From positions 64,001 to 128,000 of the forward strand of contig CAVXTH010000005.1 of NCBI GenBank assembly GCA_963764625.1: DNA of 64,000 bases, written 5' to 3'. The stretch comes from Candidatus Krumholzibacteriota bacterium. GTDB taxonomy: Bacteria > Krumholzibacteriota > Krumholzibacteriia > JAJRXK01. Shown here piece after piece: positions 303 through 54,031 of the stretch (positions within the stretch are counted from its first letter, which is position 1; each line of letters opens with the position of its first letter). The position numbers and the translations under genes are program-made. The notes beneath the pieces are model-generated. The model was not told the origin of the DNA. It saw nothing but the letters and a program-made list of their open reading frames with translations, and searched no databases.

Positions 303-1070
303 TCAATCAGAGCCCAAGAGCTTCTGGACGCTCGACGGGATGCCGCTGGGAGAGGGCTTGCGCCCGAAGTCCACACACACGAGTTCGTCCTCGGTCAGCA
401 GCGGAGGCGGAGAGCCCGGTTGCGCCTCGGCAGGAGCAAGCTCGGTATCCACCTTGGAACGCAAGAGTCCGAAGATGGGCACCGCGGAGGAGATCTGGGC
501 CACCGCCACCGCCTGATTGCGGTACACCATGTCGCCGCGTCCCATCCTCACTCTCACTTCCCGGACTTCCTCCAGACGCACTTCCTCACGCGCGATCGTT
601 CTTTCGGAGATGAGGGTGTCCGGCAGGGCCTGACGCTCGACGGTGGGATTTTCGAAGAGGTCCTGAAAATGCCGTTTCAAAAGACGGTTGGTCTTCAGGT
701 TCTGAAGGTCTTGCTCCTCTACCGCCTCGCCGGGGAGAATCTTGAACACTCTGCGCAATCCGTCGAGGAGATCTCCCTGCCGCAGCGTGTCCAGGGGAGC
801 CACGAGCAAGACGTACGATTCCGCCTCATCCAAGAACTTCAACCCGATCCAGTGTTCCCCCTCGTCGGTCGCGGCGAGGACCTCGCAGCGGAGGCTCTCC
901 TTGGTCTGCTGACCCTCGGCCGTCTCGGTGCTCTGAAATTCCGCCCACGATCCCGGGCGAAGGTCGAGTTCGATGAGACCGCGGTGCCACCAGGAGAAGA
1001 TTTCCTGGGCGCGGCAGGGGCTAGCGCCGGCCAGAACGAAAAGCAGGAGAGTGGTTAGGACCCAGCGCAT
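303..1070 (-). CDS. Hypothetical exported protein
   Basis: ATG at 1070 gives a signal-peptide-like MRWVLTTLLLFVLAGASPCRA; the upstream part of ORF 303..1490 overlaps the cytochrome gene and is not used. Confidence 0.7.
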   Translation of the reverse strand: MRWVLTTLLLFVLAGASPCRAQEIFSWWHRGLIELDLRPGSWAEFQSTETAEGQQTKESLRCEVLAATDEGEHWIGLKFLDEAESYVLLVAPLDTLRQGDLLDGLRRVFKILPGEAVEEQDLQNLKTNRLLKRHFQDLFENPTVERQALPDTLISERTIAREEVRLEEVREVRVRMGRGDMVYRNQAVAVAQISSAVPIFGLLRSKVDTELAPAEAQPGSPPPLLTEDELVCVDFGRKPSPSGIPSSVQKLLGSD

Positions 1071-1156
1071 CGTCGATCGTTTTCCCCCCAAGAGCGAAAC
1101 GAACGCCCGGAGAGCCGAGTCTCCGGGCGTGGAAAGGGAAAGCACCCGTCGATTCC

Positions 1157-2518
1157 TCAGTGGGCGATGCGTGCCCAGTAGGTGTCGTAATCGAAGCTGG
1201 GATCGAATTCCGGGGTGTGACACTTCGTACAAGACTCCTTGGCCTGCTTTACCCACTCCCCATCGCGCGCGTGCATGCTGCCGTAGCCGTGGCAGGCCTC
1301 GCACTGGACGTTGAAGAGCGTGTTCCGCCCGTTGGCGGACACCGCGGGATCGAATCCGTTGTAGTAGTCCCATCCCGTCACGTGACAGCCCACGCATTCG
1401 GGATTGCTGGTCTGTCCCTTGGCCACCAGGGTCTGCCAGGCCTTGGCGTGCCCCGTATCCTGAAAGCTGGTGAAGATCGCCTTGTGGCAATTGCTGCAGC
1501 GCATCGTACCCAGGTACATCTCGCTCGTTTCCCCTTTGTCGGGACGGGGGCTGAGCTGGGAATGCTGGGACAACTTCTCGTTCGACTTGAGGAAGGTGTC
1601 GACCTCGGCCTGGACCTCCGCGATCTCCGGCGCCTGCAATCCGAGTTCGTGCAGAGTCAGAACCGCATCCTGGATGACACCCTTTGGAGTGACTTCCAGA
1701 TCGAGCTGACCCAGGTACTTGCCCTGGGGGTTGGCGGACACCAGGTAGATGTCGCCCACGCGGTTCAGGCGGCGGTACTCGCGCAGATCCGCGCCCTCGA
1801 CGCAGATATCGATGCCCGAACCCGAGCCGAGGTCGGTTAGCAGCTCGCGCGTGTCACGGGTGGACGCAGCCGAGAGCAGGATGATGAGATCACTCTTCTT
1901 CCTGAGTTCGGGCAGATACTTGTCCAGCGCGTCGCGAGGAGAGTCGATCACGAACTTGTCCACGTGCGCCGACATGGTGGTGATCGTGTAGCTCTGTCCG
2001 AGGACGGAGATGATCCCGATCCTGAGTCCGCCTTTTTTCACCACGGCGTAAGGATCGAAGAGTAGCTTACCGCCCTCGCCGCCCCGCAGATTGGCCGAGA
2101 TGTAGTGGAGCTTGCGCTTCACCGCCTGCTCCTTGAGGAAACTGAGACCGTAGTTCAGATCCCACTGTCCCACCGCCAGCACCGGATAATCCAGCTGGGC
2201 CACGTGGTCGAGCAAGAAGAGCGTCTGGGCTTTCGCGGCATCCGTACGACGGCCGTACATGTTCCCCGCGTCGAGGTGGAGCACGTTGTCATGATTCTTG
2301 GCGATGTCCTGAAATATGGCGGCCCTCCGGGCCAACCCACCGAGCGGCTTGTGTTTTCACCCACACGGGGCGATTTCACCGTGGACCGCCCCTTCGAAGG
2401 TGAGAGTCAGATTGACCATGTTCTCCTCGGCTTGCGACGCGGATCGAAGCGTCAGCACGCCGAGCGCCGCGGCGAGCGCAACGAGAAAGCTCGTTGCCCT
2501 CAGGGTGACTCGATGCAT
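1157..2518 (-). CDS. Selenoprotein: degenerate UshA/5'-nucleotidase-like domain (CGU motif) fused to a tetraheme cytochrome c (c554-like)
   Basis: ORFs 2357..2692 and 1157..2335 are in one frame separated only by TGA (2357-2359): HGEIAPCG-U-KHKPLGGLARRA. GGAGG RBS before ATG 2518, signal peptide, four CxxCH motifs (CSNCH, CVGCH, CEACH, CTKCH). Confidence 0.85.
2318..2337 (-). promoter_or_regulatory. Putative bacterial SECIS hairpin
   Basis: GGUUGGCCC-GGA-GGGCCGCC stem-loop with a G-rich apical loop starting 28 nt after the in-frame UGA. Confidence 0.65.
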
Positions 2519-2701
2519 TTCCATCCTCCACGGGGAGTACAAAAGGGGCCCATACTTGCGCGGGTGAGCCGTCATGATACCAAGAGAATACCGCTGACCG
2601 CAATCTCGGCCTTGGATTGCCCGCCGGCAGCTCCTTCTCCCGGCCAGGACACCCGCCCGGTTTGAATGCCTGGACCACGCGTCAGGTTCCAAAATAGACC
2701 A

Positions 2702-2782: not shown

Positions 2783-3082
2783 CTACTTCCTCTTGTTCAC
2801 GTGATCCTTCAGAGCACGGCCCGCGCTGAATGCGGGAACGCGGCTCGCGGGAATGGCGATGGTGGCACCCGTCTGCGGGTTGCGACCCATCCGCTTCTTC
2901 CGCTTGCGGCTCTCGAAAGTGCCAAAACCCGTGATCTGGACCTTGCGGCCCCGGGTCAGCTCGGAAGCGATGATTCCCCTCTTCGGATCGGTGTCGAAGA
3001 GCATGTCGATAATCGCCTTGGCCTGACGGCCAGAGAGCTCGGACTTCGTCGCGAGCTTCGCGGTCAATTCGGTCTTGTTCAT
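2783..3082 (-). CDS. hup: DNA-binding protein HU
   Basis: MNKTEL start, VQITGFGTF and GRNPQTG motifs; AGGAGG RBS; TTGACA at 3132-3137 upstream. Confidence 0.93.
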   Translation of the reverse strand: MNKTELTAKLATKSELSGRQAKAIIDMLFDTDPKRGIIASELTRGRKVQITGFGTFESRKRKKRMGRNPQTGATIAIPASRVPAFSAGRALKDHVNKRK

Positions 3083-3271: not shown

Positions 3272-6200
3272 CTAAAACGACCCGACCTGTCCGAAGTAGC
3301 CGCCGAGACTCTGGTTGCCCCGTTGAATCTTCAAGTCGGGGATGCTCCGCAGGTAGATGCGGAAAGAGAAGTCGGAGGAGTTGGTGACCGAGCGGCGGAA
3401 CTCGATGCGCCACTGGTGGATATCGCGACTCAGACTGTAGCTCTGGTTGGTGAAATTTCCGGTCTCCACGTCGAAGTTGGCCGAGTAATCCAGATTCCAG
3501 GAGATGGGCAGGATCGCGCTCATCCGGGTGGAGATGGTGGCACGAGTGGGACTGTTGCGGCCGTTGGTGATACTCGCGCGGGCGTTGAAATTCCAGGGCA
3601 TGGTGTTGTCTTTGCTGCTCCGCTTCAGCTCCTGTCCCCCCGTCTGTCCAAACCAACTCTCGTCCTCGCGCGAGGTGGCCAGAGTGTCCGCTGGTTCTCC
3701 GATGCGCTCCACCACCGCGTTCTTGGGCTCCTTTCGCTCCAGGAACAACCCGCCAAAATCCATCTTTCCGTCCAGCCGCAGGTTGGTGCTCACGGTGGTG
3801 GAGAGCACCTGAAAGCGATAGGGATCGATGGACTGGTTCATGGTGAAATCGACGGCGCGCGTGAAGCCGGGGCTCAGACGCACCGTGGATCCGATGTTGT
3901 CCCAATTCTGGCCGGCAGGATCGTCGGGCCGGTAGCTGGTGGAGAGATCCCAGGTGAGCAGGCGTTCGAGCTTGCGCATTTCCTCCTTTTGGCCGGTCCC
4001 CTCGTCGCTCACGAGCTCTGATTCCGGGGATCCGGCGACGGCTTTATTCGTGCCGGAGACGCCCGACCGGTCGGCGCTCGGGTGCACGGCGTACTTGAAG
4101 CTCAGCTCGTTGCCCACTCTAATGCCGATGCTCTGACTTGCGCTCTGCTTGTCGCCGAGCTGCGGCCGCCACGAGTGACTCACCGCGAGCGAGAATTTGT
4201 GCTTCACGCCGCGCAGCGCCCCCAGGTGAGTGTCGAAGATCCCGTAGAGGTTCGTGCTCAGAGAATTGCGCCAGGACAGGCTCGGCGTGGTGCCCTCTTC
4301 CAGTTTGTCAGTTTCCGAGTCCAGCTCGTAGACCTCTTGGGTCTGGACATTGCCGTCGCCGTCGAGGATGGGGTTGCCGCTGCCGTCCTTGAGAGTGTCG
4401 GTGCGCGCTAGGTAGGTCTGCGAGAAGGTCGTGCGCCGGGAGTAGGCTTCCGCGAAACTCCCCGAGGAAGTCAAATTGAACGGCCCCAGGCGATACTGGG
4501 GGTTGTAGCTCAGGCCCCAGTTTCCCGAGGCGCTCAACTCGTCCACTCGACCGATCTCGTGCCTCTCGCGTTGGACGTCGCCCCGGTAGCTCTGGCTGAA
4601 GGTCATGTCTCTCAGGAGCTGCGCGGGGGCGCTCCCCTCGCCGCGCCGGCGCGCGGGCCCCAAGAGAGGCCGGCTCTTGAAGCTCAGACTCACGCTGGGA
4701 AGGGTCTGGCGGTAAATGAGATGGTCGGTGGTGGGATCGTCGTCCTCGGCGTTCACGTACTGGGTACGGGTGCCCGAGAGGTTGAGTCTCGCCCCCGACT
4801 CGAACCCGCGGCTCAGGCTCAGATTGCTGCGCAACTCGGTGGGCAGAAGATCGGCCGAATTGCCAGTGATGGGATCGACGTTGGTGATGGTGTTGGACGT
4901 GAGGTTCAGATTCGACGTGAGATTCCAGGCGTCGAAGAGCTCGGGCTGGCGGTGGTTGGCGAGAAATTTCCACTCCTTGCCCTTCTGATTCTGCTTGAGA
5001 GTGGTGGTCCAGGTGAACTCCACGTCGCCGCTGTACTTATACCTTAGGTTGTAGCGATTGCGAATCTGCAGCGAGAGGTCCCTCCTCTCGTTGAAAGCCC
5101 CCTTGAATGTGAAGTCGGTGTACTCGTTCGTGGCCCAGTAGTAACCCAGATCGCGAATGTAGCGGCCTTCGCGTCCACTCACTCCCAGGTTCACGTTGGG
5201 AAACATGATCCCCGAGTGGCGGCCGGAGTCGATCTTCTTGAAGAAGAAGGGAAAGGCGAAGACGGGCAGATCGCTGATGTAGAAGGTGACCTGCCGCGCC
5301 ACCACGCTCTTGCCGATCTTCACTTTCATCTTCTTCGCGGAGAAGTGGTAGTGGGGGTGCTCGAGATCGCACGAGGTGAACATCCCTCCGCGCACCAGCA
5401 GGGTTTCGTCGTTCACGCGGCGCACGTGACGACCGTAGTAGAACCCGTCGTCATAGCGCGTGATTCCATGGTCCACCGCCCCAGTCTTGTAGTCGAAGAG
5501 ATAGCCCATCCTATCTCCCACCAGCTTGCTGCTCGTGTCGATGATCATGGGTTCACCCTCGGCGATCAGCTCCCTCTCGTTGGTGTCGAAGTCGATGGAC
5601 TTGGCAGTCAGAGTGAGGTCCTGGTGACTCACGAGCGCGGTGCCCTGGATCTTGATGCGACCCTTGGGAACCCAGAAAACGGTCGACTCGCCGGAGTACC
5701 CCACGGTGTCCGCCAGGTGGGAGAAATCGACGAGCCCATCTTGCAATTCGGGGCCCGTGGACTCTTCCTTCAACTTCAGGCTGTCCAGCTCCACCCCTTC
5801 CGCCTGGGCCAAACTGTCCAGGCGCGCGTGCCGCATCGCAGCGAGGGAATCGCGTTCGGCCCGAATGCGGAGCACGCGACTGCGGTCGAGGAAGTGGTAC
5901 TTTCCCTGACTCGAACCGGTGATGGTGACCCGCTCCACGCGCCCATTTGCGAAGGCGATCTCGATGGAATCCCCCTCGGCCTCGTTCACCGAGATCACGT
6001 CGGTCTGGTCCTCCGGCAAATAGACGCTCTGCGCGTGACCGCTCACGCTGGTACGCAGGACTTCGCCTTCCTTCAGATCGATGTACAGACTGTCCCCGTG
6101 AAGCTCGTTTGTCAGCGGGATGCCCTTGAACTGTGATTTGAGAGTGTCGGGGCTGGAGTCCACCAGACTGGCTTTCCCGAGGATCGCGATGTGCCGCAGT

Positions 6201-7156
6201 TCTCCCGACAGATAGCCGAAGCGAATCGTCGACCCGGTCATGACCTGATCTTCCTGCTTCACTCGGGGCGAACCCCTCAGAATCAGAAGATCCTCGCCGT
6301 AGAAATCCGCCGTGTCCGCGTCGGCGATGGTCTGACCCTGTTGAAAGTGCACCTCTCCGATCGCCCGGCTGTGCTCGTTCTGGGTATCGAAGCTCATCCA
6401 CTTGCTCTTCACTGCAGCGGTCGCGCCCTCTTGATGCCGGCTGCGCAGCGTGGGGAGCGAATCGACGTAGGCGTAGCCCGTGCCGCGTTCGAACACGGCG
6501 TGCTCCCCGGTCACCACGGTGTGCGCCTCCTCGTCGACGAGCTTCACCGCGCCGAAGGCCTTCAGGCGCTGGGCGGCGCGGTCGTAGAAAAGGCTGTCGC
6601 CATCGACCGTGGTGGTCGAATCGACGAGACGAGCCGAACCAACCAGAGCCATGGCGTCGCGATCCCGCCAGTAGATCCCGCGCTCGCCGGTGCCCTTCGA
6701 ACCGTCATTGGTGAGTAGGCGGACGTGGCCGTAGGCCCAACCCACGCCCTGGGTTTCCCCCACCCGCAAGGAATCGGCCCAGAGTTGGAGCGAGTCGGTG
6801 ATCGCGTGGACGTTTCCCACCACCCAGATGTAACGATCGCTCTCGTAGTAACGTGCGCGATCCGCCGTCACGTGGAGTTTGCCCTGCCTGAAATAGGCCT
6901 CGCCCACTCCGAAGAAGACGTACCCGTCGGAAGTGAGAAGTCGCCGTCCGCTCGCCGCGCCGTAGTACATGCGCTCGGCGGGCTTGGCCTTGGATGGGGT
7001 TTGGCTGGGGAGAGCGTTGGCGGCCAGGATCGCGGCCAGAGAGAGCACGCAGAAGAGCGCAAGCGTCCGTCGCCCGAACCTGAGGAATTGGGTCCTTGCC
7101 GGTGGCACACGAAATGAAGCCGAAAAGCGGCTCAAGTCAGGACTCCATCTCCCCAT
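3272..7156 (-). CDS. lptD: LPS assembly protein LptD with a long N-terminal OstA/LptA-like beta-jellyroll region
   Basis: FTSCDLEHPHYHF, LPVFAFPFF, RHSGIMFP and RDIHQW LptD-type motifs; OstA-like repeats in the N-terminal ~430 aa; start may be TTG at 7135. Confidence 0.82.
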   Translation of the reverse strand: MGRWSPDLSRFSASFRVPPARTQFLRFGRRTLALFCVLSLAAILAANALPSQTPSKAKPAERMYYGAASGRRLLTSDGYVFFGVGEAYFRQGKLHVTADRARYYESDRYIWVVGNVHAITDSLQLWADSLRVGETQGVGWAYGHVRLLTNDGSKGTGERGIYWRDRDAMALVGSARLVDSTTTVDGDSLFYDRAAQRLKAFGAVKLVDEEAHTVVTGEHAVFERGTGYAYVDSLPTLRSRHQEGATAAVKSKWMSFDTQNEHSRAIGEVHFQQGQTIADADTADFYGEDLLILRGSPRVKQEDQVMTGSTIRFGYLSGELRHIAILGKASLVDSSPDTLKSQFKGIPLTNELHGDSLYIDLKEGEVLRTSVSGHAQSVYLPEDQTDVISVNEAEGDSIEIAFANGRVERVTITGSSQGKYHFLDRSRVLRIRAERDSLAAMRHARLDSLAQAEGVELDSLKLKEESTGPELQDGLVDFSHLADTVGYSGESTVFWVPKGRIKIQGTALVSHQDLTLTAKSIDFDTNERELIAEGEPMIIDTSSKLVGDRMGYLFDYKTGAVDHGITRYDDGFYYGRHVRRVNDETLLVRGGMFTSCDLEHPHYHFSAKKMKVKIGKSVVARQVTFYISDLPVFAFPFFFKKIDSGRHSGIMFPNVNLGVSGREGRYIRDLGYYWATNEYTDFTFKGAFNERRDLSLQIRNRYNLRYKYSGDVEFTWTTTLKQNQKGKEWKFLANHRQPELFDAWNLTSNLNLTSNTITNVDPITGNSADLLPTELRSNLSLSRGFESGARLNLSGTRTQYVNAEDDDPTTDHLIYRQTLPSVSLSFKSRPLLGPARRRGEGSAPAQLLRDMTFSQSYRGDVQRERHEIGRVDELSASGNWGLSYNPQYRLGPFNLTSSGSFAEAYSRRTTFSQTYLARTDTLKDGSGNPILDGDGNVQTQEVYELDSETDKLEEGTTPSLSWRNSLSTNLYGIFDTHLGALRGVKHKFSLAVSHSWRPQLGDKQSASQSIGIRVGNELSFKYAVHPSADRSGVSGTNKAVAGSPESELVSDEGTGQKEEMRKLERLLTWDLSTSYRPDDPAGQNWDNIGSTVRLSPGFTRAVDFTMNQSIDPYRFQVLSTTVSTNLRLDGKMDFGGLFLERKEPKNAVVERIGEPADTLATSREDESWFGQTGGQELKRSSKDNTMPWNFNARASITNGRNSPTRATISTRMSAILPISWNLDYSANFDVETGNFTNQSYSLSRDIHQWRIEFRRSVTNSSDFSFRIYLRSIPDLKIQRGNQSLGGYFGQVGSF

Positions 7157-52351: not shown

Positions 52352-54031
52352 CTATTGCAGGTCCAGATCCTGGAGATACGAAGCGCGGGTTCCCCCCACA
52401 TCCTCCTTGAAACGATCGTCCGAATGAGGGGACACCGGCGAGTGGGCCTTGATGTAGTCTGACAGGGCCTCGCGGGTGAGCATGCCGGTGTAGTTGACCT
52501 TGTCGGGGGGGATCTCGGCCAAGAAGTCCAGGCCGCTGTTTCCCTCCATCAGGAAGTCGCTGGTGATGACCTTGTATTCCTTCCCCGGCACGACGGGAGT
52601 GCCATCGACCAGAGTGAGTTGGAGCACTCGCTTGCCGAGGGGCGCATCCGGATCGACCACTGCCTTCACTCCGCTGTAGGCGATCCCGCTGCTGTTCCGA
52701 CCCGTCTTGCGCTCGAAGATGCGGCGGATCATCGAGCCGTCCATCTGTACCGTAGCCAGGGCGTTCCCGAAGGGAAGCACGCGCATCAGGTCTCCCTCCG
52801 TAATGCGGCCCACGGAGAGATCCGAGCGCAGCCCTCCCAGGTTCGTGAAGGAGAAATCGCCGTCCTGGGCCTCGAGCATGGCCGAGGTCACGAGGATCCC
52901 CATTCGCGAGAGCGGACCACCGTTGCGCGAGAGCTCCACCGCCGAGCGGCCCACCGTCTTGTCCAGACCCTTGCGGGCGTCCGCCACGTAGGGAGCCAAA
53001 TCGTCCGCCATTTCGGGGTCCGGCCAGTACTGATCCTCGAAGAGCGTAATGAGAGTTCCGTCGCGGCGCGGGCTCTCGTACCCCATGAGCTGCTTGGTCG
53101 CGCGGTCGATGAGGAGCACCACGTGTCCGATGGAGGAGCCGTTCCCGAAGGTCTCGAAGACCATCGCCTGCGTCACCGGATCGATCCACGGCTTGCGGTA
53201 TCCACGGTGAGTGTGACCGCCGATGATGACGGGGACTCCCGTGACCACGTGTGCGATGGCCATGTCACCCTCTGCATCGTGCTCGAGATCGTCGCCGGCC
53301 TTCACCCTCTTCTCGAGCTGTTTCCAACCGGTGTCGGGATCGTACGGCAAGCCCTCGTGGATGAGTGCGAAGACCATGTCGACGTGTTCCTTGTTCACCA
53401 GAATGTCACGGTACTTTTCGAGCGCGGGAGGAATAGGGCGGAAATCCAGACCCTTCACGTTCTCATCGAAGGCCATCGATTTGGTGGCGGGAGTGATGGC
53501 GCCGATGATCCCGATCTTGAGGCCGGCCTTCTCCACCACGCGATACGGCACCACCCAGTCGACGAGCTCGTCCGTACCCTCCTTGTAGATGTTGGCGCAG
53601 ACGAACTTCTGATTCATCGCGGCAGACATGCGAATGGGAACGTCCTTGCCCTTGTCGAATTCATGGTTCCCCACCGTGACCGCGTCGTAGTGCATGGTGT
53701 TGAAGTAGGTCTCCATGACCTTGCCCTTGCTCAGAGTTCCCACCGGAGCTCCCTGCCAGGTGTCACCCGCGTCGACCAACAGAACGGCCTGGTTGGGATC
53801 GTGGCTGGCTTCCGCCCTCACTTTCTGTACGTAGGCCGCCGCCGCCGCGCCACCGCCCAGAGGAGGCGGAAAATCGGGGCTCATGAAGCGCGCCGCCTCG
53901 GGCCCGACGTGACCGTGGATGTCGTTCGTCCACAACAGATTCAGACGGATCATCCCGTCGTTCTCGGCCCGCGCGACCGGCGCGAGAAGAGAGCAAAGGG
54001 CGAGGATGAGAAAAAGCGTTTTGGCTCGCAT
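52352..54031 (-). CDS. Secreted 5'-nucleotidase/bifunctional metallophosphoesterase (UshA family)
   Basis: Signal peptide; intact TNDIHG, DAGD, GNHEFD, GGHTH; C-terminal N.GGLR..L, LPFGN. Confidence 0.92.
   Translation of the reverse strand: MRAKTLFLILALCSLLAPVARAENDGMIRLNLLWTNDIHGHVGPEAARFMSPDFPPPLGGGAAAAAYVQKVRAEASHDPNQAVLLVDAGDTWQGAPVGTLSKGKVMETYFNTMHYDAVTVGNHEFDKGKDVPIRMSAAMNQKFVCANIYKEGTDELVDWVVPYRVVEKAGLKIGIIGAITPATKSMAFDENVKGLDFRPIPPALEKYRDILVNKEHVDMVFALIHEGLPYDPDTGWKQLEKRVKAGDDLEHDAEGDMAIAHVVTGVPVIIGGHTHRGYRKPWIDPVTQAMVFETFGNGSSIGHVVLLIDRATKQLMGYESPRRDGTLITLFEDQYWPDPEMADDLAPYVADARKGLDKTVGRSAVELSRNGGPLSRMGILVTSAMLEAQDGDFSFTNLGGLRSDLSVGRITEGDLMRVLPFGNALATVQMDGSMIRRIFERKTGRNSSGIAYSGVKAVVDPDAPLGKRVLQLTLVDGTPVVPGKEYKVITSDFLMEGNSGLDFLAEIPPDKVNYTGMLTREALSDYIKAHSPVSPHSDDRFKEDVGGTRASYLQDLDLQ

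Follow-up and report, generated by a model that had tools for sequence, protein, structure and literature searches.

An in-frame TGA in a Krumholzibacteriota gene almost certainly encodes selenocysteine in an exported UshA-like protein with a tetraheme cytochrome domain

In a 64,000-nucleotide stretch of contig CAVXTH010000005.1 (positions 64,001 to 128,000; hereafter the window) from assembly GCA_963764625.1 of a Candidatus Krumholzibacteriota bacterium, a minus-strand frame running from 2518 to 1157 is interrupted by a single internal TGA (2359-2357, codon 54). The question raised by this locus is whether that TGA terminates a short gene or encodes selenocysteine (Sec) in one continuous protein. 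Plain open reading frame (ORF) calling yields two pieces, 2357..2692 and 1157..2335, and the public protein collection contains only a 392-residue piece (P0002) with a TTG start 3' of the TGA, a fragment that has neither the signal peptide nor the putative active-site motif. An original prediction, made from the letters of the DNA, held that the ORF track had split one gene at the TGA and that both parts were in frame, and we recover that frame from the ATG at 2518 to the stop at 1157-1159. Our analysis indicates that the TGA is, almost without doubt, a genuine Sec codon in an exported four-heme protein, and that 2518-1157 is very probably a Sec-containing member of the NCBIfam family NF041198 ('UshA_like_PCGU, UshA-like (seleno)protein'). 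The features of the gene itself are as follows.

1157..2518, minus strand: whole predicted selenoprotein coding sequence, 453 residues plus a TGA stop at 1157-1159, translated with TGA as U (NF041198, 299.1 bits)
2516-2518, minus strand: ATG start of the read-through frame
2524..2529, minus strand: Shine-Dalgarno-like GGAGGA six bases 5' of the ATG, read directly from the sequence
2429..2518, minus strand: predicted signal peptide of the Sec export type, residues 1-30, cleavage after SQA, assigned by eye
2357..2365, minus strand: Cys52-Gly53-Sec54 motif, with the Sec codon TGA (codon 54) at 2357-2359

The context of codon 54 is HGEIAPCG-U-KHKPLGGLARRA, in which APCGU makes up residues 50-54, and the UGA of the motif HGEIAPCG-UGA-KHKPLGGLARRA was thus correctly located at 2357-2359 from the start. 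The N-terminus also has the composition expected from the earlier claim of a signal peptide: judged by eye, it consists of MHRVTLR, a hydrophobic run and SASQA, with EE following the predicted cleavage point. Residues 1-29 are mostly below 50 in predicted local distance difference test (pLDDT) score in the structure model described below. Read conventionally, the TGA would be an ordinary stop, and the locus would consist of two genes, one for an exported peptide of 53 residues and the other, starting from the TTG at 2335, for a cytochrome of 392 residues. This is how standard ORF calling and the public collection treat the locus, and the gene's own final stop is likewise a TGA. However, the 392-residue piece carries four CxxCH motifs without a signal peptide, so it would have no access to periplasmic heme attachment, and it is here that the two-gene reading fails.

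As a single read-through product, the protein matches NF041198 with an E-value of 5.5e-89, above the curated cut-off of 275 bits, and the score in a six-frame search of the genome is 291.3 bits. In that search both halves of the protein match one and the same profile, at positions 5-271 and 366-518 of 519, and the heme half alone gives 117.7 bits over positions 366-518. The read-through protein shares with the family the above-cut-off score, the P-C-G-[U/C] motif (here P-C-G-U), the UshA-type N-terminal domain, the C-terminal multiheme part, which is tetraheme in this protein, and the alternation of Sec and Cys among members. It differs in being shorter (453 residues against 519 profile positions), with positions 272-365 unmatched. 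Since the profile already spans the heme domain (its C-terminal multiheme part covers positions about 342-519), the fusion of UshA-like and tetraheme domains is the normal architecture of the family. The novelty of the fusion implied by the original prediction accordingly falls away, as the heme module belongs to the profile of a catalogued family. Its mention of UshA-like selenoproteins with Cys homologs of the form PCGC...GGLARR was accurate: the family is NF041198, and P0088 reads PCGCNANSAGGLARR. Related database entries are named either 'multiheme c-type cytochrome' or '2',3'-cyclic-nucleotide phosphodiesterase'.

If the TGA encodes Sec, homologs should have Sec or Cys in the same column, and this is what we observed. 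Among 30 related loci from a search of the same phylum, 17 have TGA at the codon-54 column and 13 have Cys (12 TGC, 1 TGT). Adding 40 further loci brings the counts to 57 TGA and 13 Cys out of 70, a 57:13 ratio that is biased because those 40 were chosen for being flagged with one TGA. Neither Trp nor a variable residue was found at this column among the 70 related loci, in line with what was expected of a genuine Sec position. Cys52, Gly53 and Sec/Cys54 are invariant in all 33 aligned full-length relatives. Further, the TGA, the frame and the preceding PCG are shared by 57 sequences whose protein identity goes as low as 31%, with Cys in the others, a pattern that runs against an ordinary stop. 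Three proteins (P0011, P0012 and P0039) are displayed with Cys at this column; the display prints U as C, and their sources may carry Sec.

A set of short Cys-form, lipoprotein-like relatives (e.g. L038, about 320-330 residues) shares the N-terminal domain and has an S-C-G-C motif in the matching column but, unlike the window protein, these relatives lack the heme domain, the TGA and the hairpin. Against NF041198, L038 reaches 164.7 bits, below the cut-off. Short SCGC Cys forms of about 300-330 residues occur at L027, L029, L031, L032, L035, L037, L038, L039, L043, L048, L051 and L052; they have a lipoprotein-like signal peptide and belong to other families of the phylum.

Bacterial Sec codons are followed by a selenocysteine insertion sequence (SECIS), and a candidate hairpin lies shortly after the TGA.

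2318..2336, minus strand: SECIS hairpin, with a core stem at 2320-2334 and an apical GGA loop at 2326-2328, 28 nucleotides after the UGA

The sequence GGCCC-GGA-GGGCC spans 2333-2321. If the base that follows the A of the TGA is counted as number 1, the first G is number 24 and the loop begins at number 29. The distance of 28 nucleotides originally given for the hairpin thus holds for the start of the loop and not for the foot of the stem. According to the Fig. 2 legend of a 2026 review (PMC13188914), the bacterial SECIS model calls for a loop of 3-9 nucleotides, a G within the first two loop bases, a position 16-37 nucleotides from the UGA and a stability of <= -7.5 kcal/mol. The window hairpin agrees with all four rules (loop GGA, 28 nucleotides, -12.7 kcal/mol). 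Compared with the bSECISearch consensus as presented in the same review (PMC13188914), it has a loop starting with GG, an upper stem of 6-8 bp and a loop size at the 3-nucleotide lower limit.

The stem is conserved across the family with compensatory changes. We aligned 57 Sec-type sequences (55 distinct) without gaps from the TGA onward, and all 55 distinct sequences form standard pairs throughout the six-pair core (columns 26-31 with 35-40). Over the same 55, pair 27-39 takes five forms (GC 34, GU 11, UA 5, UG 4, CG 1), pair 30-36 takes two (CG 50, UA 5), and the outer pair 24-42 is GC in 43, CG in 5, AU in 5 and unpaired in 2, while pair 25-41 is a mismatch in 37. Many of the stem changes are synonymous on both arms, for instance Ala GCC to GCU together with Arg AGG to AGA. 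Paired cells amount to 91.1% against 82.2 +/- 0.8 in shuffles (0/500 reach this value) and 29-53% in slid controls, and the covariation score is 0.326 against 0.162 in shuffles (again 0/500). An independent RNAalifold prediction yields the same core of six pairs. All 12 distinct Cys-form sequences have G.G at pair 29-37 and encode GGLGRR where the Sec forms have GGLARR; the hairpin is thus present only where the TGA is. A hairpin with compensatory changes that follows the TGA in TGA forms only is a further argument against the TGA as an ordinary stop and, together with the conservation of the frame and the export problem of the 392-residue piece, makes the two-gene reading very unlikely.

Several observations weaken the case for the hairpin. 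Two of the five covariation measures fall within the shuffles (both-side changes, 113/500; further pair types, 89/500), the Sec sequences are related and hence not independent, and the stem shares nucleotides with the codons of the conserved peptide GGLARRA, a coding constraint that accounts for part of its conservation. The stability of the hairpin alone is also close to that of shuffled sequences (-12.7 kcal/mol, z -1.51, with 14 of 200 shuffles as good), and the 73-nucleotide stretch, a single GC-rich sequence, folds with z +0.32 against shuffles. Because single-sequence folding fails to separate the hairpin from its GC-rich background, the case for it rests on conservation and covariation. 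Taken as a whole, these data reveal a conserved hairpin at the expected distance with compensatory changes, as had been anticipated. An Rfam search found no SECIS family and gave four sub-threshold chance matches; one of these, to Acido-Lenti-1 (19.3 bits against 37), falls opposite the hairpin on the plus strand and was rejected.

Reading the TGA as Sec also calls for the corresponding machinery, and the genome carrying the gene (96% complete, 9 contigs) encodes it. We found selA (454 bits), selB (355 bits), selD (TIGR00476, 358 bits) and a tRNA-Sec (selC; 73.3 bits, anticodon tca), each over its cut-off. The selD gene lies outside the window (G000:C1:137574-138506, locus L010) and contains one in-frame TGA, and its product, selenophosphate synthetase, is probably itself a selenoprotein in this genome. 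For heme attachment there are three PF01578 cytochrome c assembly genes, with a CcmF-size and a CcmC-size pair about 4 kb apart on one contig, while ResB of the System II heme maturation pathway was not found in the 96% complete genome. Both the Sec genes and the Ccm-type cytochrome c maturation genes that the first reading had pointed to are thus present.

A single in-frame stop resembles a sequencing or assembly error, or the fresh mutation of a recent pseudogene. Two DNA runs and two runs of metatranscriptome libraries each have Logan contigs that span 2357-2359 with the TGA unchanged and no variant at those positions, which bears out the codon in independent assembled contigs; all four runs are recorded as salt-marsh metagenomes, and the source sample itself may be among the DNA runs. 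The RNA-library contigs cover only 16 and 15 of the 30 bins of the stretch, the uncovered bins being uninformative, and they do not prove transcription. An error or a pseudogene is also at odds with the same codon in the same column of relatives from many genera, and we regard either as vanishingly unlikely. The homolog column, the SECIS, the machinery and the contigs together rule out that the TGA stems from faulty sequencing, a pseudogene or an alternative genetic code. Between the contigs of these runs and the window there are 24 differences, all within 1250-2051, and none over 2052-2700, a region that includes the Sec codon, the hairpin and the gene start; the contigs are few and their depths low.

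Given a Sec residue at position 54, the next question is what kind of protein carries it. The protein was modelled with AlphaFold2 from the alignment of 33 sequences (A1), giving a pLDDT of 85.8 and a predicted template modelling score of 0.81.

1619..2419, minus strand: degenerate metallophosphoesterase (UshA/5'-nucleotidase N-terminal) domain, residues about 34-300, from Foldseek and the alignment to 2z1a

Foldseek pairs the modelled N-terminal domain with PDB structures of 5'-nucleotidases, CD73 and UshA at E-values of about 1e-20, and the sequence matches the Thermus 5'-nucleotidase 2z1a at 1.6e-9, so the UshA fold assigned earlier to this part of the protein is upheld. With 5'-nucleotidase, UshA and CD73 (2z1a, 1ush, 4h1s) the window protein has in common the N-terminal fold (query-normalised template modelling score about 0.54) and the GG-x-ARR helix motif. 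In contrast to these enzymes, its dimetal and catalytic residues are replaced, it has no PF02872 domain, and it adds the Cys-Gly-Sec loop and the heme domain. The metal and catalytic columns, taken from the alignment to 2z1a and then read across the 33 family members, are as follows.

Motif I Asp: kept in 23/33 of the family; A44 in the window protein
Motif I His: present in only 4/33 of the family; H46 in the window protein
Motif II Asp: kept in 23/33 of the family; N86 in the window protein
Motif III Asn-His: absent in 33/33 of the family (Glu in 25 at the Asn column); Q118 and W119 in the window protein
Motif IV His: kept in 23/33 of the family; A217 in the window protein
Motif V His: kept in 22/33 of the family; A243 in the window protein

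The window protein thus does not have the catalytic motifs I-V of the 5'-nucleotidases, and H46 is the sole residue left in a ligand column. In its three closest relatives in A1 (L025, L028 and L030), as in the window protein itself, all four residual ligands found in most NF041198 members have been replaced, yet all four proteins still keep the CGU and every heme residue. These four are also the only sequences with His in the motif I His column.

Weak family matches to SoxB (67.7 bits) and UshA (45.6 bits), along with Foldseek matches to 5'-nucleotidases and to SoxB (2wdc), could be taken as signs of a still functional 5'-nucleotidase or SoxB-type hydrolase with a heme tail. The scores against SoxB (TIGR04486) and UshA are, however, far under the respective cut-offs of 550 and 600, and the motif III Asn-His is missing from the whole family, with the window protein keeping one His of the Asp/His metal ligands. 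Hydrolysis is unlikely because the phosphoesterase metal and catalytic residues are gone. Nor is there a C-terminal substrate-binding domain, as no Pfam match to PF02872 (5'-nucleotidase C-terminal) was obtained in the window protein at E <= 0.01, and a canonical two-domain 5'-nucleotidase is encoded elsewhere in the window, at 52352-54031. We consider a hydrolase with a heme tail highly improbable. The canonical paralog, on the minus strand, is 559 residues long with PF00149 and PF02872 and no internal stop, and scores only 46.4 bits against NF041198.

The C-terminal part of the selenoprotein is a multiheme cytochrome domain.

1160..1522, minus strand: cytochrome c554-like tetraheme domain, residues about 333-453, from PF13435, NF041198 and 1bvb
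1484-1498, minus strand: CxxCH motif at residue 341
1382-1396, minus strand: CxxCH motif at residue 375
1289-1303, minus strand: CxxCH motif at residue 406
1217-1231, minus strand: CxxCH motif at residue 430

The domain matches PF13435 (cytochrome c554) at 55.4 bits against a gathering threshold of 20.8 and the c554 structure 1bvb at an E-value of 8.6e-9, while the equivalog NF043010 is matched at 43.4 bits, under its cut-off of 400. The four C-terminal CxxCH motifs that had been read from the translation are all in place and, with His357, His416 and His453, they are invariant in the 33 aligned relatives. Both the tetraheme arrangement and the CxxCH spacing correspond to those of cytochrome c554 of Nitrosomonas (1bvb/1ft5), with the difference that the domain is fused here whereas c554 is a free electron carrier. 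His453 (codon 1160-1162), which probably serves as a distal heme ligand, is invariant in 33/33 and is the last residue in 32, the exception being P0089, where a tail of 29 residues follows. We found no invariant Met, Lys or Tyr in the heme domain of the 33-sequence alignment. As only three invariant His outside the CxxCH motifs are available to the four hemes, one heme is left without a conserved distal ligand from its own domain.

This shortfall bears on the role of the Cys/Sec pair. The CGU loop is placed at the entrance to the former metal site, with the first strand, which carried the old motif I, on one side and the GG-x-ARR helix on the other. The pair could serve as a ligand, either by binding a residual metal in what was the phosphoesterase pocket or by taking the sixth coordination position of one heme. 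Most members keep the four old ligand columns (Asp in 23, Asp in 23, His in 23 and His in 22 of 33) and have Glu in 25/33, and only H357, H416 and H453 are available as invariant non-CxxCH His for the four hemes, both of which would suit a ligand. Against this, the window protein, L025, L028 and L030 lost all four residual ligands and keep the CGU, so a metal site is not the family-wide role. Cytochrome c554 itself has one five-coordinate heme, and a similar heme here would explain the missing His without recourse to Cys or Sec. A ligand role for the pair is, in our assessment, unlikely. The more specific proposal that Cys52 or Sec54 is the sixth ligand of the heme lacking a conserved distal ligand, or sits directly over it, is rather improbable. 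The His/Cys-ligated catalytic hemes of TsdA and SoxAX carry out sulfur-sulfur chemistry; were the proposal true, the protein would have a His/Sec(Cys)-ligated catalytic heme comparable to the TsdA/SoxAX type and would be the first such case to involve selenium. In that event, the cleanest form in which to test it would be that of the window protein and its three closest A1 relatives, which have shed the residual metal ligands and kept the CGU and the hemes.

Rather than a ligand, we favor a redox role for the Cys/Sec pair. There is strong support for the reading of UGA codon 54 as Sec by SelB and tRNA-Sec, directed by the 6-8 bp hairpin whose GGA loop lies 28 nucleotides after the UGA, and for a mature protein made up of a 5'-nucleotidase-type scaffold without metal or catalytic residues and a c554-like domain with four covalently bound hemes. 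The Cys52-Gly53-Sec54 loop may stand at the place of the ancestral enzyme's first metal-binding motif and may form the active site, in which a periplasmic selenenylsulfide/selenol couple would pass electrons to and from the four hemes. Its likeliest activity would be to reduce, or possibly to oxidize, a small compound of sulfur or selenium, or a peroxide. This heme-coupled Cys-x-Sec mechanism, with its putative contact between loop and heme, we hold to have an even chance of being correct. What restrains us is, first, that selenium incorporation, heme loading and any activity in the family are things we infer, and second, that our literature searches on the family returned catalogue and review listings and no functional study of any member. 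In addition, the neighboring HU gene, lptD and exported-protein gene (listed below) give no functional clue, and terminator-like hairpins lie on both sides of the gene.

The family has been catalogued for some time. In the 2008 Global Ocean Sampling selenoproteome paper (PMC2398784), 'COG0737, UshA-like, CxU' appears among the known families with 76 Sec sequences, and a UshA-like protein with the CxU motif is likewise catalogued in reviews from 2022 and 2026 (PMC9312934, PMC13188914). The 2026 review gives the accession NF041198 for the UshA-like proteins and also a second family, NF049981 (PMC13188914); a term search of that review found no mention of the Krumholzibacteria lineage. The gene described here is an unannotated addition to a known family and introduces no new principle, both the CxU motif and the Sec/Cys alternation having been catalogued since 2008. 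Two modest observations were not met elsewhere, namely the loss of every residual metal ligand in a small clade and the occurrence of three conserved distal His for four hemes. The practical value lies in the annotation, where a full-length selenoprotein replaces the 392-residue public fragment. Within the phylum, 199 of 201 sampled genomes match the NF041198 family at E <= 1e-20, and 36 of the 201 pass its cut-off after split pieces are summed. Judging from these sequence data, a family that is nearly universal in its phylum and appears to pair Sec with four hemes in the periplasm would be a reasonable target for biochemistry.

Finally, the gene is flanked by the following features.

1106..1131, minus strand: terminator-like hairpin 3' of the gene, GC-rich and followed by a T-rich tail; the pattern scan gives the stem 1119-1106 and a longer inverted repeat was seen by eye, a consensus match only
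2729-2700, minus strand: terminator-like hairpin on the other flank of the gene, from the pattern scan
2783-3082, minus strand: HU-type DNA-binding protein (PF00216), upstream of the selenoprotein gene
3272-7156, minus strand: LptD, 1294 residues (PF19838, PF03968), upstream of the selenoprotein gene
306-1070, minus strand: 255-residue exported protein directly downstream, with no Pfam or NCBIfam match

The order of these neighbors is kept in 14-15 of 18 full-length related loci, which looks like general synteny of housekeeping genes. At the position of the 255-residue protein, a same-strand ORF groups by BLAST in 14 of the 18 full-length loci, a comparison made among the related loci and not including the window ORF itself. 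In the window, a terminator-like hairpin separates the gene for the 255-residue exported protein from the selenoprotein gene.

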